DNA of 48,713 nucleotides from Candidatus Heimdallarchaeota archaeon (GTDB taxonomy: Archaea; Asgardarchaeota; Wukongarchaeia; Wukongarchaeales; JBHIFL01). The notes under the pieces are model-generated. The model had not been told where the DNA came from. It searched no databases and worked only from the letters and a program-made list of their open reading frames with translations. The DNA lies in the NCBI GenBank assembly GCA_046761065.1, contig JBHIFL010000025.1, positions 1 to 48,713 of the forward strand, written 5' to 3'. Of the stretch, positions 9,278 to 35,849 are shown piece after piece. How positions within the stretch are numbered: the first letter of the stretch is position 1; each line of letters opens with the position of its first letter. The translations under genes were made by a program, and so were the position numbers.

Positions 9278-11707
9278 ATGACTCAAACAACCTCTAATTT
9301 CCAGACGCTTCAATACTCGGGAATTTTCTTATTGTCAGCAGCGACCTTGATGCTTCAAGTCGCCTTTACGCGTGTTCTTTCCGTTGCTCTCTGGTACCAT
9401 TTCGTTTTCATGGTGGTGAGCATTGCCCTTTTCGGTTATGGGGCAAGTGGAACCTTCCTTTCTAGTTTTCCGCAGCTCTTGAAGCAAGATCTTGATCAAC
9501 TGCTTACCCTCACCGCAGCCTTGTTCTCGGTCGCAAGTTTTGGCAGTTATATCATTTCTAATCAAATCCCATTCGATCCTGCTCGGCTCGCTTGGGATCG
9601 GATGCAGATTGGTTATATTATGATTTACTATCTCCTGCTCGCTATTCCTTTCTTCCTTAGTGGTCTATGTGTGGCCTTAGCAGTCTCGAAAGCGGGGAAA
9701 GTGATTAATAAACTCTACTTTTCAAACCTTATAGGTTCAGGTCTTGGTTCGTTCCTCGTTCTGTTTTTGTTTTCACCATTGACTGGGCCCGGCGTCATGG
9801 TGTTTACTTCTCTCCTTGCGGGCGTTTCGGCCTTCTTCTTCAGCATGCAGCTGCAAAAAAGCCATAGGTGTATAAATGCACTCTGGTTGCTTATACTTCT
9901 TCTGGTACTTCCCTTTGCTCAAGTGTTGTTTCCTATTCACATATCTCCCTACAAGAGTCTCAAGATAGCCCAGAGATACCCGAACGCGGAATTGCTAGAT
10001 ACACAATGGAATGCCTTTTCGCGAGTTGACGTCATCCAAAGTGGATATGTTCGATATGCACCTGGCATTAGCCTCCAGTATCAACAACCTCTCCCCGACC
10101 AGATTGGGGTGACAGTCGATGGAGACACGATGACAGCCATAACTCGGTATGACGGGAATTTATCAACCCTATTGTTCACAGCTTATCTCCCATCAGTCTT
10201 ACCATATTATCTTCATGACACCCCCTATACTTTAGTGTTAGGGGCAGGGGGTGGTTTAAGCGTTCTGTCTGCCTTGTACCATAATGCCAGTTCCATCGTC
10301 GCGGTTGAGGTCAACCCTCTTATCGTCGACCTCATGCAACACAAATACAAAGAGTTCGCAGGTAACATCTACGGGATTGGACGGGTGAAGGTAGTTGTCT
10401 CCGAAGGTAGGAGCTTCATCCGCGCGAGTACCGACACATTCGATATCATTGAACTTTCCATGACCGATAACGCTGCAGCCTCCTCAACCGGGATTCACGC
10501 CCTCTCTGAGAACTATTTACATACAAAAGAAGCTTTTATCGATTACTTTACCCACTTATCCCCGAGAGGAATGTTCACTGTGACCCGATGGCTTCTTCCT
10601 CCCCCAAGAGAGGACATCCGACTCGTTTCTCTAGCCGTCGATGCCCTAGAAAGCCTAGAAATCAAAGATCCTGAGAACTACATCGCGGTGATCCGAACGT
10701 GGGGTACCCTTACCCTCCTCATCAAGAAGAATAGGCTCGATACCACCGATAATGCCGCAATCCGAGAGTTCTGTCGCAAACGGAGTTTTGACATCGTCTA
10801 TCTCCCTGGAATCAGTCCTCAGGAAGTCAATCGTTACAATCAATTTCCGGAGCCGATCTACTACATGATGGTTCAAGAGATTCTTTTCGCTGAAGATCGG
10901 GATCAGTTCTATGAGCGCTATCTATTTGATATCACCCCTGTTTCCGACGAACGTCCCTTCTTCTTCCATTTTTTCAAATGGAACCGGCTTTATGAGACGT
11001 ACAAATTTATGGGGCGACGGTGGCAGCCCCTTATCGAAGGTGGGTTTTTGGTACCCCTCGTCTTTGTTCAAGCACTAGCCCTCTCTATGGTTTTCATCCT
11101 CCTCCCCCTCCGCAAGGTCCAGCGGCATGACGTTGTTGGCCATAAGCGGTTTATTACCTATTTTTTCTGCTTGGGCCTTGGCTATATGTTCATTGAGATC
11201 ACCCTCATCCAACGGTTCATCCTTTTTCTTGGTCACCCCACTTATGCCGTCTCAACTGTTCTCTTCAGCCTCCTCTTGTCCTCTGGAGGCGGTAGTTACT
11301 TCTCTGGGCGTGTTAAACTCGTTGACAGGCGGGGTCTACGATTCCTTCTTCTCGGGATTAGCACCCTCAGCCTTCTCTATATTTTCCTTTCCCCCGTCTT
11401 TTTGACGTTCCTCGGCTTATCTCTCGCCACTAAATTACTCGTCTCCTTTTTACTGATTGTACCTCTCGGATTCGTCTTAGGAATGCCCTTCCCGCTCGGA
11501 ATCAGACTACTGAGCGATTCAAGGCACGTTCTAATTCCCTGGGCTTGGGCTGCCAACGGCTGTGCTTCCGTTTTAGGTTCCATCTTGCCCGTGATTATCG
11601 CCCTCTCCCTTGGCTTCTCAACCGTCTTCGTTCTCGCCAGTTTGACTTATCTGATAGCGTACCTCTTCTTGTCGTATAAACACCCATTCGAAAGTTTTAG
11701 TATCTAG
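9278..11707 (+). CDS. Multi-pass membrane protein with a spermidine synthase-like SAM-binding domain
   Basis: TM blocks at both ends; central VLGAGGG, VEVNP and EGRSF motifs; conserved GMPFPLG and WAWAANG motifs. Confidence 0.85.
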   Translation: MTQTTSNFQTLQYSGIFLLSAATLMLQVAFTRVLSVALWYHFVFMVVSIALFGYGASGTFLSSFPQLLKQDLDQLLTLTAALFSVASFGSYIISNQIPFDPARLAWDRMQIGYIMIYYLLLAIPFFLSGLCVALAVSKAGKVINKLYFSNLIGSGLGSFLVLFLFSPLTGPGVMVFTSLLAGVSAFFFSMQLQKSHRCINALWLLILLLVLPFAQVLFPIHISPYKSLKIAQRYPNAELLDTQWNAFSRVDVIQSGYVRYAPGISLQYQQPLPDQIGVTVDGDTMTAITRYDGNLSTLLFTAYLPSVLPYYLHDTPYTLVLGAGGGLSVLSALYHNASSIVAVEVNPLIVDLMQHKYKEFAGNIYGIGRVKVVVSEGRSFIRASTDTFDIIELSMTDNAAASSTGIHALSENYLHTKEAFIDYFTHLSPRGMFTVTRWLLPPPREDIRLVSLAVDALESLEIKDPENYIAVIRTWGTLTLLIKKNRLDTTDNAAIREFCRKRSFDIVYLPGISPQEVNRYNQFPEPIYYMMVQEILFAEDRDQFYERYLFDITPVSDERPFFFHFFKWNRLYETYKFMGRRWQPLIEGGFLVPLVFVQALALSMVFILLPLRKVQRHDVVGHKRFITYFFCLGLGYMFIEITLIQRFILFLGHPTYAVSTVLFSLLLSSGGGSYFSGRVKLVDRRGLRFLLLGISTLSLLYIFLSPVFLTFLGLSLATKLLVSFLLIVPLGFVLGMPFPLGIRLLSDSRHVLIPWAWAANGCASVLGSILPVIIALSLGFSTVFVLASLTYLIAYLFLSYKHPFESFSI

Positions 11708-22220: not shown

Positions 22221-23189
22221 AAATTGAAAAATGACTTGTTGTCTACTAGTTCGGTGAATGGTTCATTTCCAAATCCAAGAGCGAAAAACTGCAGTTATTA
22301 AAAAAGACATACACTTTAGACCATGTTTTAACCGTTTTAATTAAAGAATTCATTGATCACGTCAGTCTAGGATCTTCATGGATTATTGGCGTGTCATATA
22401 TTCTGAATTTATTGCATAATCAAGAATATTTTTCAGAGATTATCCATATTATCAAAAAATTACTTGCCAAAGCAAAAAACATAGATAAAAAGCACTTATT
22501 TTTCATCTATGATGAATTAGCAACTGCCTATCGAGAATTGGGTAACCATAAAGCTAGGATACAGTAATACAATATCTTAATTGGAAAAATTCAATTTCTT
22601 AATTTTAGCATATTATAGAATATATTCCTTAGTTTTTTCCTATTAATCCCCATAATTCATATTGGTGAAACTTTTGGTAATATTTATCGGATATATGTTT
22701 TTCTGGGATCAAATTTCTGCTTTTAACATACGATAAATTCTGCTTTTGACTCCTAAAACAACCACTAAGGAAATATCCTCAGAATTCCTTTAGTTTGAAC
22801 TTATTTGCGCTGAATGCAGGATCGCTAATTAAAGGAATCCACAAAAATCGAGTAAAGAGCAATCTGACATTGATCTTGGTCTCATTCTGATGTTTACATG
22901 TTGTTCGGTTCGCCCATAAGGTGTAACCCACTCCTACTTTCTTCTTCCCTAGAATAGAATGAAAAAACAAATTATGGCCAATTTTTGATGGAATAATGTT
23001 TGAATGATGTAAAGATTGTTTTGTTATGGTCTCCTTTAGCAAGCTATTTTGGGGTATTCTTTCCATTTACCCTGTTGCAATATTTTTAGAGTAGTTAGTT
23101 TTCATTAACATTTTAAGACGAAAGGCTCAAAGTTCGACATTGCTTAGCACCAACTTAGTTTTGTCTGCTTCGAGTCCGTCAAATATTTT

Positions 23190-23420
23190 TTACTGATCTG
23201 GTTTACTCTTTTCGAGCCGAACGAGAACTGTACGCTCCGATTCTATCTTTTCAATTCGTGGGCGGTTCTGGATATTGACTATCAAATCGATATACTGTTG
23301 TGCCGTCCAATAGTGCATTTTAGCTCGTTTTGCTAAAGTAGTAAGTGAGAGGGGACGACCTGTTTCAAGAATATCGAATATTTTTTCCACACGATCTGCA
23401 ATAGAACCACCACGCGGCAT
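23190..23420 (-). CDS. Small winged-HTH transcriptional regulator, divergent from the RAMP operon
   Basis: 76 aa; LSLTTLAKRAKMHYWTAQQYIDLI HTH; ggagg RBS upstream. Confidence 0.75.
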   Translation of the reverse strand: MPRGGSIADRVEKIFDILETGRPLSLTTLAKRAKMHYWTAQQYIDLIVNIQNRPRIEKIESERTVLVRLEKSKPDQ

Positions 23421-23520
23421 TATAATTCCTCCAAATAAATTTGAACTAATATATTATTTAACTATTTTGATTGAATGATTATTATATATTTTAAGTAATT
23501 ATTTATTTTTTTCAAATATA

Positions 23521-23534
23521 GAAAAATTTATAAA
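23521..23534 (+). promoter_or_regulatory. BRE + TATA box of the RAMP operon
   Basis: GAAAAA-TTTATAAA about 35 bp upstream of ATG 23569, within a very AT-rich divergent intergenic region. Confidence 0.6.
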
Positions 23535-23568
23535 GTTTAATTTTCCTATATGATACTGGTGTTAAGCA

Positions 23569-23895
23569 ATGTTGAATACAGAAACATTTCAAGTTGAGTC
23601 TATGTTAGGAAAAGGAGGCGTCCGATGCTGGCGATGCGGCCGCTCATTAACCAACCCTGAGAGCATTGAACGTGAGTACGGTCTAGTGTGCTGGGAGAAG
23701 GTTGAAATCGAGCTATGGTTAGGCGATGTGGCAGTCTCAGAGCCAACCATCCCGACCCAACGACGGTATTGGAACCCCAAGCTGGCTGAAAAACTCGTAA
23801 CCGTCCACCACACCTTAGATACCTTCTGCTTTGTGGAGGTGGAGCCACACCAAGCAGAAGCTCCGAGTAAGAAGGCGGTCCTGGTGGAGGGGTGA
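23569..23895 (+). CDS. DUF6011-like zinc-finger protein
   Basis: RCWRCGRSLTNPESIEREYGLVCWEK fits the C..CGR.LT...S...G.GP.C pattern. Confidence 0.75.
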   Translation: MLNTETFQVESMLGKGGVRCWRCGRSLTNPESIEREYGLVCWEKVEIELWLGDVAVSEPTIPTQRRYWNPKLAEKLVTVHHTLDTFCFVEVEPHQAEAPSKKAVLVEG

Positions 23896-23899
23896 GGTG

Positions 23900-24148
23900 A
23901 TGTCCCATTCCCAGTACCTCTAAGTGGAGGCGGCTCGGCTGGTAGTGGAGGGACGCGTTTCCATCCTCTATAAAGGCGGGGGAACCGCGATCTTTTTGGT
24001 AGAGAGCAAGACGAAGGCCTATCGAGTGCACCTGAATCCTGATGGGACGGTGTCATGTACAAGCACCCACTGGACATACTGGGGGGAAGTGTGTCAGCAT
24101 ATTCTCGCGAGTCAGTTTTGCCACCATGCCCACGAGGTGGTTCGGTGA
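23900..24148 (+). pseudogene. SWIM zinc-finger protein with an early in-frame TAA
   Basis: RBS gaggtg and ATG 23900; TAA at 23921-23923; F.VES....Y.V......SCTS.......CQHILA (second SWIM Cys replaced by Ser). Confidence 0.7.
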
Positions 24149-25221
24149 TCCTCATGGTACCGCAGACGCAGTTCCGCTTGCGAGCAGTCTTCTATACGCC
24201 CATGGCTAAACCATTAGGGGTCAATGTACCGGGGAGTTCCACCAGTACAATCCCGGGGACAGCGCCCTTAGTCGTCGAGACCACCGCAGAGAATCCGCTG
24301 GTTTCCATTGCCCACAAAATTACTGAAGGGACTTTAGGGCAACTCCCAGTCAAGGCTCTTCGGGAAATTATCGATGAGCTGCAGACCGTTAGTGGAGAAG
24401 GGGTGTCCAAATCAGGTACGAAAACGGAGATGATCCAACGCATTCTCGCTTCCCAACACAAAGATGCCGCGATCCAGCGGTTCCTCATTGATAAAGATGT
24501 CCGGGAACAACAGAAACAGGAACGACTCATCTTGAAGCTCTTTACCAGTCTTCGGGGTGCCTTACGCCAAGCGGGGAAGGAAATCCTGGAGGAACTCCAC
24601 CTCCCCTACAGTATGCCAGGATTACCAGAGGATTCGTTACCCAAAGGTGCCCATCGACCAGGCGAATGTCCTGACCCCGAGGAAGAATGCCTGTTATGCC
24701 GCGTCTTTGGCTCGCTGAACCACGCCTCTCTTTTCCGGAATTATACCCCACCGTTAGTGGACGACCCTGAGACCAAGTTGGGCATCCACCAGGAAGTGAA
24801 TCACGTCTTAATCCGCACTCATGCCCGCAACGTCCACCGTCCAGATGGGAACACCCTCAACTTCAACCAACAATATTTTGCGGGCGAATTCATTACGTAC
24901 CTCCAGTTTCCCAACGGCCGCCCGAAGCCCATAACCTTGGGATTTCTGCTCAATTGCCTGGAACGCTGTACCGATGTGGGGGCCGCGAAGGCGTGGGGCG
25001 CCGGGAAACTGTTCCTCCGGGCCTACACGTTGGAAAAGGTCGAATTCACCTATGCGCGGGAATGGGACGGGGGAGCTTTTCAGTTAGTTCGCAAAGAGAC
25101 GGTCATACCCCTCAAAGCTGAACTGGAACACGCCTTCGAAGCCTATGAGCAGTGGCTAGCCCAAATTGTAACAAAACCTAGCGAATCGAGTGAGACCCAT
25201 GAAGGGGAGGTGACTGCATGA
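24145..25221 (+). CDS. Cas7-like RAMP protein with a SAP/HEH-like insertion
   Basis: N-terminal beta strand; TSLRGALR (the RAMP SLKG.LR helix); H...EC......CLLCRVFGS; C-terminal Gly loop VGAAKAWGAGK. The start is likely GTG 24145 after gaggtg, overlapping the upstream TGA. Confidence 0.82.
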   Translation: MILMVPQTQFRLRAVFYTPMAKPLGVNVPGSSTSTIPGTAPLVVETTAENPLVSIAHKITEGTLGQLPVKALREIIDELQTVSGEGVSKSGTKTEMIQRILASQHKDAAIQRFLIDKDVREQQKQERLILKLFTSLRGALRQAGKEILEELHLPYSMPGLPEDSLPKGAHRPGECPDPEEECLLCRVFGSLNHASLFRNYTPPLVDDPETKLGIHQEVNHVLIRTHARNVHRPDGNTLNFNQQYFAGEFITYLQFPNGRPKPITLGFLLNCLERCTDVGAAKAWGAGKLFLRAYTLEKVEFTYAREWDGGAFQLVRKETVIPLKAELEHAFEAYEQWLAQIVTKPSESSETHEGEVTA

Positions 25222-26108
25222 TTGCGCGCCTCATCGCGGAAACCCTGACCCCGATTGTGACGAAGTCCCGATTCCTACGGGTACGTGGCAGCCGCGGGGT
25301 GGTGTCCAATCGGCCTTATCTGGAACTGGAGGCGCCGGCTCGCCATCAATGCCGCACGACCCTGATCGTGAAGCAAGGCGCGCATGGGTTGCCAGTCTAC
25401 CGGCGCGCGTATATGGGGTACTTGCACCTCGATTTCAAAGCCCGAACGCAGAAGCAGACCAATCGGAAAATTCACGCATTACTCCAACTCCAATGTGTCG
25501 GAAAGCTCACCGCATGGGGTTACGGGGCCATTCGCTGGGTTTTACACAAGGTGTATCATCGACAAGCATCGGGTCACACGTTTCGCCCACGGTTCCGGAT
25601 TCTCAAGGGCTTACTCTCGGATCTGACCTTCCATGAGCGCCAGCTGGCTATGGCTGCGCTCCTGCACGATTTGGTGGACACCGATATGCACCCCTCCAAG
25701 TTGGGGCGGGCCGTCACGATCCCCGATCCCTATGTGCGGTGGTTGTGTACACAGCATCACGCCGCAAAGGCGCACTCCGATAATCCCGATTTGCAGTTCT
25801 TGCAAGAAGCGGATGTTCGGACGTCACGCTATGCCCGCCTCCTCTCTGTATCCACACGGCGCCGCAAGCTGGCTCCGGTCAATACGCAACAGCTCGCCCA
25901 ACAACTCGAAGAGGCCGCCCACCACTCGGTTTATAAACTCTACACAGTTATCTACCATTCACAAGAACTAACGCAGTTCACCGCATCCAAAACCCATCCT
26001 ACCGAGACGCTCCGGAATCACCTCATTGGGGTGGTGAATTGGGTGTTGTTCCTGGTGCGAACACGCGTTTCTACCTCTTTACATGCTTCGGCAGCCCTCG
26101 TGGGATAG
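25218..26108 (+). CDS. Cas5-like RAMP fused to an HD nuclease domain
   Basis: N-terminal LIAETLTPIV strand and Gly loop VGKLTAWGYGAI, then AALLHDL, HH, ADVRTS and C-terminal ETLRNHL. ATGA overlap with the upstream gene. Confidence 0.78.
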   Translation: MIARLIAETLTPIVTKSRFLRVRGSRGVVSNRPYLELEAPARHQCRTTLIVKQGAHGLPVYRRAYMGYLHLDFKARTQKQTNRKIHALLQLQCVGKLTAWGYGAIRWVLHKVYHRQASGHTFRPRFRILKGLLSDLTFHERQLAMAALLHDLVDTDMHPSKLGRAVTIPDPYVRWLCTQHHAAKAHSDNPDLQFLQEADVRTSRYARLLSVSTRRRKLAPVNTQQLAQQLEEAAHHSVYKLYTVIYHSQELTQFTASKTHPTETLRNHLIGVVNWVLFLVRTRVSTSLHASAALVG

Positions 26109-26260
26109 CTGGGTGGAACTCCCGGCCTTGTCGAGGTGGAAGATCCTCGGGTCGCAGATGAGCCATCACTCCGTGGTGAAACCCGAGCGAGAGGACCCAC
26201 ACTCGGCGGTGTGGCCACGACCTCCTCGTTGAGGGGCTTTCATGCAACAAGGAGCGAAAA
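25915..26260 (+). repeat. 346 bp direct repeat, copy 1 (3' end of cas5-HD plus RNA)
   Basis: Colinear without indels with 30781..31126 (offset 4866). Confidence 0.95.
26079..26260 (+). ncRNA. Putative structured RAMP-associated RNA, copy 1
   Basis: cUUCGg hairpin (tgc-ttcg-gca); stems gctggg/cccggc, ctcgggt/acccgag, tcact/ggtga and ccacac/gtgtgg; closing pairs gccctcg/tgaggggc and ttacatg/catgcaa; near-identical second copy. Confidence 0.7.
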
Positions 26261-26261
26261 G

Positions 26262-27944
26262 CTAGTATCCAATCGCTTCAGATTCAAAGCTAAGGAAGTG
26301 CCACTCCACGCCACCATAAAGGAGATTCTGCTTGGAGTCAACGACAATACCGACGGGTCTGGCCCAGTTGCCGATCTCTTTGTCAATGTAAGCAATTTGA
26401 TGTCCCATCTCTATGAGCTTAGTAGAGGTTTCCTTGGGGAATCTACTGTCAATTTGTACCTCACTCGTTTCCCGCGTGATCCTTGGGGCCTCGATTGCCG
26501 ACTGGATGTCCATCCCGAAGTCAATAACGTGAACGATGGTCTGAACGATAGATGTCTGAATAGCTCTCCCACCAGGGGCTCCAATAGCCATGAAGGGTTC
26601 TCCATCTTTCAGGAGGATGGTTGGACAGACGTTCTGGATTCGACGCTTTCTTCCCGAGATTGAATTTGCATGCCCTGGTTCTGGATTAAGCCCGTACATT
26701 GCATTATTCATAACAATTCCTGTTTCAGGGATGACTACTCCACTACCAAAGGTATCAACAAGGGTTTGGTTTATTGCCACCAAGTTTCTATCTTTGTCAG
26801 CCACTGTAAGGGCAGTTGTACATTCTTCATATGGCCATGGGTTACCCGGGGTTATTTCAAGGGCTTTCTGAAAGTTGATCCGTTGTTTCTGAAGCATCTT
26901 GGCATATTCCTTGGAAACAAGCCCTCGTTGAGGGACATTGATAAACTCAGGATCCCCCATATACTCGAATCTGTCGGCATAAGCGAGGCCGATAGCCTCA
27001 GCCATGATGTGGAGATGTTCCAGGGATCCGAACCCATATCCGGCGAGATCGAACCCTTCAAGAATATTTAAAATCTCCATGAGGGTCGTCCCGGCGTGAC
27101 TCGGATCGTAAATTACTTCAAAGCCTCGGTATGATCCAGGAAGGGGGGTGATGACAAGGGGCTCGTACATGGCGAGGTCTTCTGCGGTGATCAGCCCATT
27201 ATTTTTTGCCATGTCTTTAATAATAGCCTTGGCGATCTCTCCCTTGTAGAAAGCGTCGGGCCCCTCCTCTGCGATGAGGCGGAGGGACTTTGCCAGATCT
27301 TTATTGGCGAGTATATCCGGAGTTGCTTTGATGGAGTGGGTGTAGGGTGTTGGAGGATACTTCCCCTCCTTAAGGAATATCCTCTGCCACTCTGGAAAAT
27401 TCGAGAATCGGTGCATAGTCTTCACGATATGGGATGTGGTCCACCAGCCCACCACGAACCCCTCTTCTGCTATCTTAATGGCTGGTTCTAGAACCTCTTT
27501 AAGCTCCATCGTCCCATAGAGCTCTAGGGCTTTCGCTAGGCCCGCGACCGTACCTGGGACGGTTGAAGCCTTATAGCCTACTATATTGGCGTCATCCTTG
27601 ACTCGTCTCCATCCCATCCACCCAGGCTCTATTTCATCAAGAAGTTCATACATTTCAGGAGTGCAATTCTTTGATGGGCGACCCACATAGTCGATGATGA
27701 TGTTCTTCCCACTGATATGAATCGCCATGACCCCCTCCCCACCAATGCCATTCATGGCCGGCTCGACAACGCAGTCCACAAATGCAGCTGCCACAGCGGC
27801 GTCGATAGCGTTTCCTCCCTTTCGCATGGCTTCAATTCCTGTCTTGCTTATGAGGGGGTGTTTCGCTGCAACCATTCCATGCTTTGCCACACAGCAGTCC
27901 CTAATTGCCTTCTCCCACTTATGCTGTTGATAAATGTACGCCAA
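26262..27944 (-). CDS. ggt: Gamma-glutamyltransferase
   Basis: GGNAIDAAVA, GIGGEG and VPGTV motifs, autocleavage Thr (CTTALTVAD), FGSG and GAPGG. Confidence 0.95.
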   Translation of the reverse strand: MAYIYQQHKWEKAIRDCCVAKHGMVAAKHPLISKTGIEAMRKGGNAIDAAVAAAFVDCVVEPAMNGIGGEGVMAIHISGKNIIIDYVGRPSKNCTPEMYELLDEIEPGWMGWRRVKDDANIVGYKASTVPGTVAGLAKALELYGTMELKEVLEPAIKIAEEGFVVGWWTTSHIVKTMHRFSNFPEWQRIFLKEGKYPPTPYTHSIKATPDILANKDLAKSLRLIAEEGPDAFYKGEIAKAIIKDMAKNNGLITAEDLAMYEPLVITPLPGSYRGFEVIYDPSHAGTTLMEILNILEGFDLAGYGFGSLEHLHIMAEAIGLAYADRFEYMGDPEFINVPQRGLVSKEYAKMLQKQRINFQKALEITPGNPWPYEECTTALTVADKDRNLVAINQTLVDTFGSGVVIPETGIVMNNAMYGLNPEPGHANSISGRKRRIQNVCPTILLKDGEPFMAIGAPGGRAIQTSIVQTIVHVIDFGMDIQSAIEAPRITRETSEVQIDSRFPKETSTKLIEMGHQIAYIDKEIGNWARPVGIVVDSKQNLLYGGVEWHFLSFESEAIGY

Positions 27945-29635: not shown

Positions 29636-29677
29636 TTTGCGATGTTCTGTGTCCAAGGCTTAGGGATTGTGCGTAAA

Positions 29678-30667
29678 ATGAGAATTTTAATCACCGGGGC
29701 GTTTGGAAATGTCGGGAAGGCTGTACTCCATGAGGCACAGAAAAAAAATCACGAAATCGTAGTATTTGAGTTGGATAATAAGAGAAATCGAAAGCTTGCG
29801 AAAAAATACCGAAACATGGTAGATACAGTTATTTTTGGGGATATCCGCGATTATATTTCAGTTCTTTCAGCAGTTGAAGGGTGCGATGGCGTCATTCATA
29901 TGACCGCGCTCATTCCTCCGGTCACCAAGAGGAATCGGGAACTTTGCATGGCTGTAAATTATGGGGGGACGGTAAATGTGGTCAATGCCCTTAATCAAGT
30001 CGCTAGCAATATTCCCCTCATTTTTTGTTCTTCCGCGAGTGTCATGGGGGCCACCCAACATTTAAACCGATTAATCCGACCCGATGATCCCCTGAAGATA
30101 ACAGGTAACTACGAAGAGTCAAAAATTAAAGCAGAGAACATGATTCGAGAAAAATATCGCAATTTCTTAATTTTTCGTCTCGCTGGAGTGTTACCCCTCC
30201 ATTCAGATTTTTCCTTTCAGCAGCTTGAAGAACTCTTTAGCATCCATTCAGACGCACGGGTTGAGATGATTCTGGATTTGGATGTGGCCTTTGCCCTCAT
30301 AACAGCAGTCGAAAAACTCACGACCCAAGACACCCCGAATAATCGGGCCTATATTCTAGGGGGTGGGAAAAAAAATGGATTCCAGATTACTGGCGAGATC
30401 TTAATTTCCCGTTCCTTGGGTTGTCTTTCGCTTCCAAAACCTGATCTAAAATATTTTACACAAGATTTAAACTCATACCATTTAGATTGGTACGATACTG
30501 AAGCGGTCCAACAGGAATTTGCCTACCAAAACCACAAACTGGACGATTATTACGATTTCATTCAGAAACGTTATGGACGTTACCGTATTTTTATCCGCTT
30601 GTTTCGGCCCCTTATCTTGAGAAAATTTATCTCGATGTCGCCATACTATAAAACTCCAGAAGCCTGA
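29678..30667 (+). CDS. NAD-dependent epimerase/dehydratase
   Basis: MRILITGAFGNVG and YEESK catalytic motif; start taken at MRIL. Confidence 0.9.
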   Translation: MRILITGAFGNVGKAVLHEAQKKNHEIVVFELDNKRNRKLAKKYRNMVDTVIFGDIRDYISVLSAVEGCDGVIHMTALIPPVTKRNRELCMAVNYGGTVNVVNALNQVASNIPLIFCSSASVMGATQHLNRLIRPDDPLKITGNYEESKIKAENMIREKYRNFLIFRLAGVLPLHSDFSFQQLEELFSIHSDARVEMILDLDVAFALITAVEKLTTQDTPNNRAYILGGGKKNGFQITGEILISRSLGCLSLPKPDLKYFTQDLNSYHLDWYDTEAVQQEFAYQNHKLDDYYDFIQKRYGRYRIFIRLFRPLILRKFISMSPYYKTPEA

Positions 30668-30780: not shown

Positions 30781-30974
30781 CCGCCCACTGTTCGATCTTC
30801 CGCTTGTATTCGATGATTTACCACTCGGAGGAATGGCACCAAATTATCGCGGCCAAAGCCCATCCTACCGAGACTCTCCGGAATCACCTCATTGGGGTGG
30901 CGAACTGGGTGTTGTTCCTGGTGCGAATGCGCGCCTTTCCTCCCTTACATGCTTCGGCAGCCCTCGTAGGACAG
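30781..30974 (+). pseudogene. Orphan 3' fragment of a diverged cas5-HD paralog
   Basis: Encodes AHCSIFRLYSMIYHSEEWHQIIAAKAHPTETLRNHLIGVANWVLFLV, versus AHHSVYKLYTVIYHSQELTQFTASKTHPTETLRNHLIGVVNWVLFLV in the full gene. Confidence 0.88.
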
Positions 30975-31126
30975 CCGGGTGGAACTCCCGGCCCTGTCGA
31001 GGTGGAAGATCCTCGGGTCGCAGATGAGCCATCACTCCGTGGTGAAACCCGAGCGAGAGGACCCACACTCGGCGGTGTGGCCACGACCTCCTCGTTGAGG
31101 GGCTTTCATGCAACAAGGAGCGAAAA
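30945..31126 (+). ncRNA. Putative structured RAMP-associated RNA, copy 2
   Basis: Four substitutions in 182 nt relative to 26079..26260; the last 132 nt are identical. Confidence 0.7.
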
Positions 31127-31128
31127 AC

Positions 31129-32661
31129 ATGATCTTGGTGCTCGACTTCGGCGGGCAGTATTGCCACCTCATAGGACGACGAATCAGGGAGCATGGGGTG
31201 TATTCCGAAATTGCTCCCTACGATATAACCCTCAAAGACCTCCAGCGGCTACATAAACAATTCAACGTGAGAGGCTTAGTGTTTTCAGGAGGCCCCGCCA
31301 GCGTGTATGAGCCCAGGGCGCCGCGACCAGATCCGAGCTTTTTGGGATTAGATATCCCGATTTTGGGGCTCTGTTATGGCCATCAACTGATCGCCCACAT
31401 GGCTGGAGGACAGGTTGAGCCAGCGAAACAGCGGGAGTACGGGATCGCGTATGTCACCATCGACCGACCGGTGGGCGTCTTGCGGGGAGTCGGGGAGACA
31501 GAGAAGGTGTGGATGAGTCACGGGGACACGGTGTTCGGGCTCCCCGCCGACTATGAGGTCTTAGCGCATACCGAAAATTGTCCGGTGGCCGCGTTTCGGC
31601 ACCAGCAAAAGCCGATCTATGGGTTGCAGTGGCACCCGGAGGTGGTGCATACCGAAAAGGGCATGCAGATGCTCCATAACTTCATTTTTGAAGTTTGTAA
31701 ATGTGACGCGAACTGGAAAATGGAAGATGTTGTGGAAAAAGCGAAAAATGAAATCCGAACGACGGTGGGGGAGGGGAAAGCGATTATCGCCCTAAGTGGG
31801 GGGATTGACTCCAGTGTGGCAACAGTTCTTGCAGCTAAGGCCCTTGGTAACAGACTGACAGCCGTGTTCGTGGACCACGGCTTTATGCGCGAGAACGAAC
31901 CGGCTTTTGTAAAGAGGGTATTTCAGAAGTTCAAAATAAACCTCGAAATGGTCAATGCCCGCGAGCGATTCCTAGCTAAACTTGCGGGAATCGTTGATCC
32001 TGAAGCAAAACGAAAAATTATCGGCGAGGAATTCATCCGGGTGTTCGAAGAAATCGCCGAGAGATCCGGGGCCGAATACCTCATTCAAGGGACTATTTAT
32101 CCAGACCGAATCGAGTCTGGCGTTAGGAAACTGTCGGATAAAATCAAAACCCATCACAACGTGGCGGGGTTGCCTACTCGAATTCGGTTCAAGGCAATTG
32201 AGGAACCCCTTTGTGACCTGTATAAAGATGAGGTGAGAAAAGTTGCCCAACTGCTGGGCCTACCAAAGGAACTCGTTGGGAGACAACCCTTCCCCGGCCC
32301 CGGTCTAGCCGTCCGGATTATCGGGGAATTAACCCCCGAGAAAATTAATATCGCAAAGAAAGCGGATCAAATTGTGCGGGAAGAAATCGAAGCCGGCGGA
32401 TTGCAAGAGCAGTTGTGGCAGTATTTCGCAGTAGTAACCGACACAAACGCCACAGGCGTCAAAGGCGATGCCCGGGCGTATGGGACTGTTATTGCGGTCC
32501 GAGTGGTGGAAAGTCGTGAAGCAATGACCGCGAGCTTTGCGAAACTCCCCTATGCCGTATTGGAACGCATCTCGACGCGAATCACCAATGAAGTGCCTCA
32601 AGTTACTCACGTGGTCTATGATATAACCCATAAGCCTCCTGCCACAATCGAATGGGAGTAA
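31129..32661 (+). CDS. guaA: GMP synthase (glutamine-hydrolysing), fused form
   Basis: ILVLDFGGQY, GLCYGHQ, HPEV, SGGIDS, QGTIYPD and KPPATIEWE motifs. The start is ATG 31129 or 31108. Confidence 0.97.
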   Translation: MILVLDFGGQYCHLIGRRIREHGVYSEIAPYDITLKDLQRLHKQFNVRGLVFSGGPASVYEPRAPRPDPSFLGLDIPILGLCYGHQLIAHMAGGQVEPAKQREYGIAYVTIDRPVGVLRGVGETEKVWMSHGDTVFGLPADYEVLAHTENCPVAAFRHQQKPIYGLQWHPEVVHTEKGMQMLHNFIFEVCKCDANWKMEDVVEKAKNEIRTTVGEGKAIIALSGGIDSSVATVLAAKALGNRLTAVFVDHGFMRENEPAFVKRVFQKFKINLEMVNARERFLAKLAGIVDPEAKRKIIGEEFIRVFEEIAERSGAEYLIQGTIYPDRIESGVRKLSDKIKTHHNVAGLPTRIRFKAIEEPLCDLYKDEVRKVAQLLGLPKELVGRQPFPGPGLAVRIIGELTPEKINIAKKADQIVREEIEAGGLQEQLWQYFAVVTDTNATGVKGDARAYGTVIAVRVVESREAMTASFAKLPYAVLERISTRITNEVPQVTHVVYDITHKPPATIEWE

Positions 32662-33609: not shown

Positions 33610-33765
33610 TGGCGGGCCCGACGAGATTTGAATTCACGTTTACTGCCTACAAGGCTAGTAAATCTCGCGACCCTCTGGTTTCTTCATATGTGAGTTAAAT
33701 CACTATGAACCGAAGCCGGATGCTTTTGACGCGTGGATGCTCTATCCATACTGAGCTACGGGCCC
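33610..33765 (-). tRNA. tRNA-Arg(UCG) with three apparent introns and encoded CCA
   Basis: Acceptor GGGCCCG/CGGGCCC-G-CCA, D stem GCTC/GAGC, anticodon TCG (33711-33713) and T arm GCGAG-TTCAAAT-CTCGT. Removing 17+30+31 nt gives a 78 nt cloverleaf. Confidence 0.85.
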
Positions 33766-33885
33766 GGAGTTGTATTCAATATTATTCTGAATGCTGAAGT
33801 GGTTTAATTGTCGTACTAAATGTGTCAAATAAGGGTATATCAACATTATGGCAGTTGAATAAAAGTTTGATTGGTGGAGTTCAAG
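33671..33885. repeat. 215 bp direct repeat, copy 1 (5' two thirds of tRNA-Arg plus upstream region)
   Basis: Colinear with 35635..35849, with scattered substitutions. Confidence 0.95.
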
Positions 33886-35634: not shown

Positions 35635-35849
35635 CCCTCTGGTTTCTTCATATGCGATTTAAATCACTATGAACCGAAGCCGGATGCTTTTGACGCGTGG
35701 ATGCTCTATCCATACTGAGCTACGGGCCCAGAGTTGTATTCAACATTATTCTGAATGCTGAAGTGATTTAGTTGTCATACTAAATGTGTCGAATAAGGGC
35801 TTTTCAACATTATGGCAGTTGAATAAAGGCATGATTGGCGGAGTTCAAG
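35635..35849. repeat. 215 bp direct repeat, copy 2, containing a 3'-truncated tRNA-Arg pseudogene (35635..35729, minus strand)
   Basis: Lacks the T arm and the 3' acceptor strand. Confidence 0.92.

Follow-up and report, generated by a model that had tools for sequence, protein, structure and literature searches.

Two nearly identical copies of a sequence of about 175 bases lie in the stretch of Asgard DNA analysed here (48,713 nucleotides, referred to below as the window), and the first copy runs from the end of a gene encoding a Cas5-like protein up to the edge of an inserted segment. This raises the question of what such a sequence does beside CRISPR-type proteins in a window in which a repeat scan found no CRISPR array. 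The gene set of the locus fits ARAMP (Asgard RAMP), array-less CRISPR derivatives that were reportedly described by Makarova et al. in 2020 (CRISPR J 3:156). The ARAMP gene set is summarised in PMC8730458 and PMC12669027, and these summaries, as far as they go, give no RNA, mobility or mechanism; reviews call the mechanism enigmatic because CRISPR effectors and Cas1 are present but an array is not (PMC8730458). The gene set is already named; the RNA, the mobility and the candidate guides are apparently new, and no description of any of them for ARAMP was found in the literature covered, which leaves aside most subscription papers. From the analyses presented here we conclude that the sequence is probably, by analogy with TnpB and its omegaRNA, the constant scaffold of a guide RNA placed at the right end of an ARAMP-type element, and that its 3' flank would act as a Cas7-bound guide for homing and self-repression.

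Results and discussion

Gene content of the element

Intact loci in this genome and its relatives carry, in this order, genes for a phosphoesterase, a DEAD-MZB helicase and a protein of 1200-1530 aa with a Cas1-like domain at its C-terminus, and then divergently a nuclease-like domain, Cas7, Cas5-HD and the RNA. Compared through the summaries in PMC8730458 and PMC12669027, these loci resemble ARAMP in the Asgard host, the diverged type III-like Cas7 and Cas5, the nucleases, the lack of an array and the distinct Cas1 of full elements; in contrast, the copy in the window (Table 1) has no Cas1, helicase or second nuclease, and its upstream module is a different one. The window Cas7 also lacks the N-terminal nuclease-like domain seen in full-length homologs (555-590 aa). 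The window holds one Cas1-less derivative and one remnant.

Table 1. Coordinates of the element, its genes and its RNA copies in the window
Feature	Position	Strand	Remarks
Whole inserted segment	21718..26262	.	Takes the place of the 110 bp that separate the M54 peptidase gene from ggt in a relative (empty site L097)
Replacement upstream module	23190..24153	.	76-aa divergent gene 23190-23420 (minus), HTH-like by eye; DUF6011 23569-23895; SWIM-like frame with early stop 23900-24153
Cas7-like RAMP with zinc finger, G-loop and inserted SAP-like segment	24154..25221	+	Weak Pfam RAMPs/SAP; alignment; Heimdallarchaeota homologs
Fusion of Cas5-like RAMP and Cas10-type HD nuclease domain	25218..26108	+	296 aa; last 8 codons overlap the RNA
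RNA scaffold, copy 1	26084..26256	+	Covariance-model match, 191.8 bits; covariation
Element-derived end, 8-mer like a crRNA 5' handle	26255..26262	+	Family consensus CG-RWAAAY; putative handle
Putative guide of copy 1	26263..26300	+	Host DNA, antisense to ggt (gamma-glutamyltranspeptidase gene, 26262-27944, minus) at its 3' end; length guessed
Cas5-HD gene 3' remnant before copy 2	30786..30971	+	tblastn 69% over 62 aa
RNA scaffold, copy 2	30950..31128	+	Covariance-model match, 198.8 bits; end is AAGGAGCG-AAAAAC, followed without a gap by the ATG of guaA at 31129

The closest protein homologs are found in Ca. Heimdallarchaeota / Hodarchaeota. Homologs of Cas7 match the Csm3 profile at 1e-5 to 1e-7 (P0008 at 1e-5). 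In the structure model of Cas5-HD (pLDDT 83) the second half, the HD part, aligns with Csm1/Cas10 (Z 10.5, rmsd 3.1, 143 aligned) and the first half, the RAMP part, with Csm4 (Z 8.2) and type IV-A (Z 7.8); the HD, HH and D motifs are conserved. With this query no relative of Cas5-HD was found in viral contigs, and genome contigs gave a single match, of 48 residues, in a bacterium.

Judged from sequence, the Cas1-like domain of full elements appears firm for a sister lineage (see below) and for contig C12 of genome G000, and motif-level for the C36 type. The sister-lineage protein matches TIGR00287 at 1e-8, its HMM detects C12 at 9e-7, and the best PDB match of the joint profile is Cas1 6OPM (2.8e-4), which we take to be a casposase; the giant protein of the C36 type is Cas1-like by aligned motifs only, with no NCBIfam match and an HMM E of 6. 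In G000 the Pfam Cas1 family had no match and the domain was found by family-built profiles only; the ESM Atlas gave no lead for it.

Two other loci of G000 deserve mention. A phosphoesterase, a split helicase and an 843-aa Cas1-like ORF (HMM E 7.5e-15) are located at C17:44513-49925, on a contig with no Cas7/Cas5 match. At C12:13699-16300 (L024) there is a divergent nuclease/Cas7/Cas5-HD operon in which about 50 nt past the Cas5-HD gene recur within the upstream nuclease ORF, a hint of a third RNA family.

Conservation and fold of the RNA

Forty-eight matches to the folded RNA, 22 of them full length, are present in the window's genome, which is of the Heimdall/Hodarchaeota type; further copies were recovered from metagenomes, and among 151 genomes of the phylum the covariance model has matches in two. 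The initial annotation had described the two window copies as differing at four sites only within 26079-26260, and this is exact (26102, 26106, 26110 and 26128, with the copies offset by 4866); also correct is its remark that three of these sites switch between G-U and Watson-Crick pairs, all three lying in the stem 26097-26135 and the fourth in a bulge. The complementary stretches that it listed are all present in the window sequence. Its remark that the RNA is of no recognised Rfam family also holds: there is no match at gathering score or at E<3, and none of the Rfam 15 families reaches the gathering threshold, ribozyme families included. Group II intron domain V and the hammerhead were considered on a by-eye resemblance and dropped, in view of missing core motifs and Rfam matches.

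Folding energy, by which a structured RNA had been expected to stand out, gave no signal on either strand when single sequences were folded: the window copy is no better than its shuffles (MFE z = -0.42), and the mean z over 35 copies is -0.67 for the + strand and -0.34 for the - strand. Given that a single copy folds no better than shuffles, the fold was judged on homologs instead. Here the covariation that had been anticipated was found; in a model of 45 pairs and 35 homologs, 88% of the cells are paired and 87 changes are two-sided, versus 34.7+/-4.6 in shuffles (0/500) and 9-30 in slid controls of the model, counts that are not probabilities because the RNA copies are mutually related. The covariation is distributed across four helices and several lineages. 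In the same homologs G-U pairs outnumber A-C pairs by 207 to 67, which favours the + strand.

The earlier proposal of a structured + strand RNA is thus upheld by covariation and G-U bias, and lacks support for about half of its stems, for the long-range closures and for the emphasis on the UUCG loop. The helix gctggg/cccggc is retained (95% paired, 11 two-sided cells), as is ctcgggt/acccgag together with two base pairs of tcct/agga (39 two-sided cells). The inner tcact/ggtga (81%) is weaker than a shifted gcca/tggt helix (94%), and ccacac/gtgtgg, with zero two-sided changes, competes with a short helix, 26136-26138/26198-26200, that has two adjacent covarying pairs. Pairing in gaggt/acctc (67%) and in gccctcg/tgaggggc (60-65%) is unsupported, and for the closure ttacatg/catgcaa the ttacatg arm is unconserved among homologs. 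The cUUCGg loop is kept in just 19 of the 35 copies and is mutually exclusive with a closing helix, UGCUUC/GGAGCG (5'-3', 26084-26089/26251-26256), in which variation is one-sided only. Apart from the short helix and this closing helix, the supported fold includes a long stem on the 5' side (26097-26135) with a T-loop-like loop of 7 nt at its tip, a covarying stem at 26146-26152/26181-26187 and a variable 3' hairpin at about 26216-26244.

The first ~80 nt of the RNA double as protein-coding sequence in intact genes. A stretch similar to its 3' end, CAAGAGCGAAAAAC, occurs in the inserted AT-rich DNA at 22276-22289, and has no covariance-model match. Six degenerate copies on G000 C115 (L048, L120) and two on C131 (L018) are interleaved with small toxin-antitoxin-like genes in the style of a cassette array; two of these degenerate copies have an identical tail.

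Insertion boundary and downstream genes

In the relative both window sites are empty, and at ggt 4.5 kb in the window take the place of a gap of 110 bp ahead of the stop codon. Over 49 copies conservation persists to +6 past GGAGCG (consensus RWAAAY) and then fades, and homology with the empty site starts at +6/+7. The 5' handles of class 1 crRNAs end in AAAC, and the last eight bases of the element resemble such a handle. The gene after the RNA varies among strains; at seven loci (L001, L002, L004, C36, L124, L125, L127) the left gene set is constant and the right flanks differ. Left ends did not align, and inverted repeats and a target-site duplication were not established. By eye, six empty sites share no PAM-like upstream motif, and at -5..-2 they have no match to the handle.

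The copies of the Cas5-HD gene have a common 3' end and a variable 5' truncation, and some RNA copies directly precede the element's own genes (L001:6561-6729; L124:8273-8434 and 10108-10279), the one in L001 lying in-frame within the nuclease-Cas7 ORF. A fixed 3' end with variable 5' truncation, and RNA-only copies within the element's own genes, could also be produced by a retro-copied SINE-like or ribozyme-like RNA unit that merely rides with the RAMP genes; we regard this as very improbable, given that the elements examined contain no reverse transcriptase, that no target-site duplication is established, that no ribozyme family matches and that decay from the left explains the truncation equally well.

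At the guaA site the filled allele reads AAGGAGCG-AAAAAC-ATG where the first codons would be; since the empty allele begins with MKYDTILVLD, an SD-like motif and an ATG are new in the filled allele and the original first codons are missing from it. A start codon is found at +5 to +8 in 18 of the 49 copies (at +7 in 14), compared with 3% of random sites, some of the copies sharing a locus; in others the stop codon of a convergent gene lies ahead, or the copy is in-frame near the start of a gene. These start codons allow a second alternative, a translational leader or switch in which AAGGAG is masked in the closing helix but exposed when the alternative UUCG hairpin forms, the downstream gene being controlled by the element's proteins as they bind. 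Consistent with it, the two folds are 0.5 kcal/mol apart in copy 2, the segment 26128-26135 has two equally conserved partners, and, as noted, copies also precede genes of the element itself. We nevertheless consider a switch quite unlikely as the main function, because copy 1 and others face the stop codon of a convergent gene or sit in-frame inside genes, and because the RNA of the sister lineage is placed likewise, yet has no SD-like end. The effect on translation is more probably a secondary property that helps insertions to survive, and we propose that right-end remnants persist before host genes because the end provides an SD-like motif and frequently a start codon as well. The host has been reshaped by the element, dozens of its genes now starting behind an element end.

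Other arrangements were observed near copies of the element. The empty site lacks the gene for an NAD-dependent epimerase that is located before copy 2 (window 29642-30667); L100 has a close homolog of this gene, which is also near two RNA copies. At G000 C5:3-17144 six 3' fragments of the element phosphoesterase gene, all in the same orientation, are separated by toxin-antitoxin-like, AlbA-like and PIN-like cargo, a pattern that looks like repeated integration at one site.

Candidate guides in the window's family and in a sister lineage

The flank that follows copy 1 (26263..26300) is identical in sequence at the empty site L097. Second-site targets of the RNA tails of the window's family were at chance level in G000 by genome-wide, six-base-masked and local gapped searches, the one strong match being a duplicated copy; with no above-chance target in that genome, a guide in this family is indistinguishable there from plain flank. 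A single copy of this family, found in a relative, carries a discrete fumarase-like tail of 23 nt, with the gene 422 nt downstream.

A sister ARAMP lineage (G040/G057), which forms a distant Asgard family, shares this architecture except that its helicase and Cas1 are fused, and one near-complete genome of this lineage carries ten Cas5-HD copies, six of them as full elements of ~6.5 kb at different places. No sequence link between the window RNA and the sister RNA was detected. The sister RNA has a fixed 3' end too; by comparison with an empty site, host DNA sets in at about +8. Nine internal tails of this RNA match the Cas7 promoter of their own element and are followed by a hairpin; in these nine pairs, which share ancestry, 40 of 53 mismatches between tail and promoter fall at position 1 mod 6 (7, 13, 19, 25, 31, 37), where about nine are expected. 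In class 1 complexes Cas7 flips every sixth guide base and Cas5 caps the 5' handle (PMC11127173), and by this parallel the mismatch at every sixth base would be the signature of Cas7 in the sister RNA family. The promoter targets match the putative handle at -5..-2 in eight of the nine pairs, and it is pairing at these bases by which the Cas10 HD is silenced in type III. Among 18 other sister tails, five have matches to host DNA of their own locus that exceed those of shuffles, with differences partly at six-base positions and partly three bases apart. The six-base signal is confined to the sister RNA, from which we infer a guide for the window's family.

Chance-level targets in the window's family are what would be expected if the sequence acted only as DNA, that is, as the cis-acting right end of a Cas1/helicase transposon, in the form of folded ssDNA or of a protein-binding site, with a flank that guides nothing. 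The precision with which the sequence marks the insertion boundary is in line with such a role, and G-T pairs are possible in ssDNA; still, its length of 175 nt, its multi-way junctions, its T-loop-like loop and its G-U bias exceed the needs of an end hairpin, and both Cas7/Cas5 and the internal copies of the sister lineage, with their periodic promoter matches, would be left unexplained. We therefore judge a role in DNA alone to be unlikely. A DNA-end role and a guide role are compatible, and the same DNA end may do both.

Proposed mechanism and comparison with known systems

For the guide-RNA scaffold that we favour, transcription would proceed through the scaffold into the flank, giving one transcript of scaffold, handle and flank. 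The closing helix would present the 8-nt handle to Cas5, Cas7 would polymerise on the following ~25-40 nt, the guide, and the long scaffold may make up for the large subunit and the Cas6 processing, both of which are missing. DNA that matches the flank would then be bound by the complex. An empty allele, which would not pair with the handle, would be nicked by the HD (or the second) nuclease, and this would favour homing, in which the element is copied in with the aid of the Cas1-like integrase and the helicase; a filled site would pair with the handle and be spared, and guides matching a promoter would repress the element's own genes without cutting. To our knowledge, self/non-self discrimination by the handle is known for RNA targets and not for DNA. 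Insertions at the edges of genes would be kept, since their guide is part of conserved coding DNA and translation signals come with the element end. With a defined RNA of fixed end, a handle-like junction and putative natural guides, the ARAMP mechanism becomes testable with two small proteins and one transcript.

Among known systems, the reRNA/omegaRNA of TnpB in IS200/IS605 (PMC8612924) is of similar size (~150 nt), overlaps the effector gene at its 3' end as well as the element's right end, and takes its guide from flanking DNA with a homing logic, the last two being putative here. In contrast, the effector here is a class 1 pair, Cas7/Cas5-HD (RAMP and HD folds), and not the RuvC protein TnpB/IscB; there is no TnpA, the empty sites show no shared TAM, and the RNA is unrelated in Rfam. 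By this analogy, the arrangement would be the TnpB reRNA layout with class 1 proteins. With the crRNAs of type III and type IV (PMC11127173) the elements share Cas5 and Cas7 folds, a Cas10-type HD, a handle-like 8-mer and, in the sister lineage, six-base periodicity, and in type III tag:anti-tag pairing silences the Cas10 HD (PMC11127173); unlike in those systems, the loci seen here lack a repeat-spacer array, Cas6, the palm domains of Cas10 and Cas11, the units are dispersed and have a constant part of 175 nt instead of short repeats alternating with spacers, and the target is likely DNA. Casposons are similar in being multi-copy elements with a Cas1-like integrase (6OPM being the best PDB match here), and CRISPR-associated transposons (CASTs) in an RNA-guided choice of site, putative here; the elements differ from both in that no PolB was found among the ORFs seen in them, that Tn7 genes are absent and inverted repeats not established, and that the guide would be the element's own flank. 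VIPR (bioRxiv 10.64898/2026.04.26.720920) and the CreR type of self-repressing crRNA-like RNAs are similar in that RAMP proteins work with a non-array RNA and in their promoter-aimed guides, putative here. CreR differs in deriving from CRISPR repeats and using a full Cascade, and VIPR in having one RAMP and GGY/NN repeat RNAs and in occurring mostly in viruses.

More tentatively, we suggest a class 1 counterpart of OMEGA, possible rather than probable: an Asgard element mobilised by Cas1, in which a minimal Cas7/Cas5-HD is programmed by one long-scaffold RNA with an insertion-site guide, targets DNA in a PAM-free manner and tells self from non-self by handle pairing. If so, it could be a living model of the step from casposon to CRISPR array. 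If the guide-RNA reading is true, class 1 proteins would be programmable by a single omegaRNA-like transcript, which may also steer the Cas1 integrase, with a bearing on the origin of CRISPR and on compact programmable tools.

Other features of the window

A direct repeat of 215 nt (93%) surrounds the SDR and MarR genes (33671-33885 and 35635-35849), and a relative has a single copy of the region. By eye the minus strand of this repeat resembles a tRNA gene in its 5' half; ARAGORN calls none. At 184-1545 the window encodes a 453-aa protein with six repeats of ~51 aa, probably a beta-propeller.
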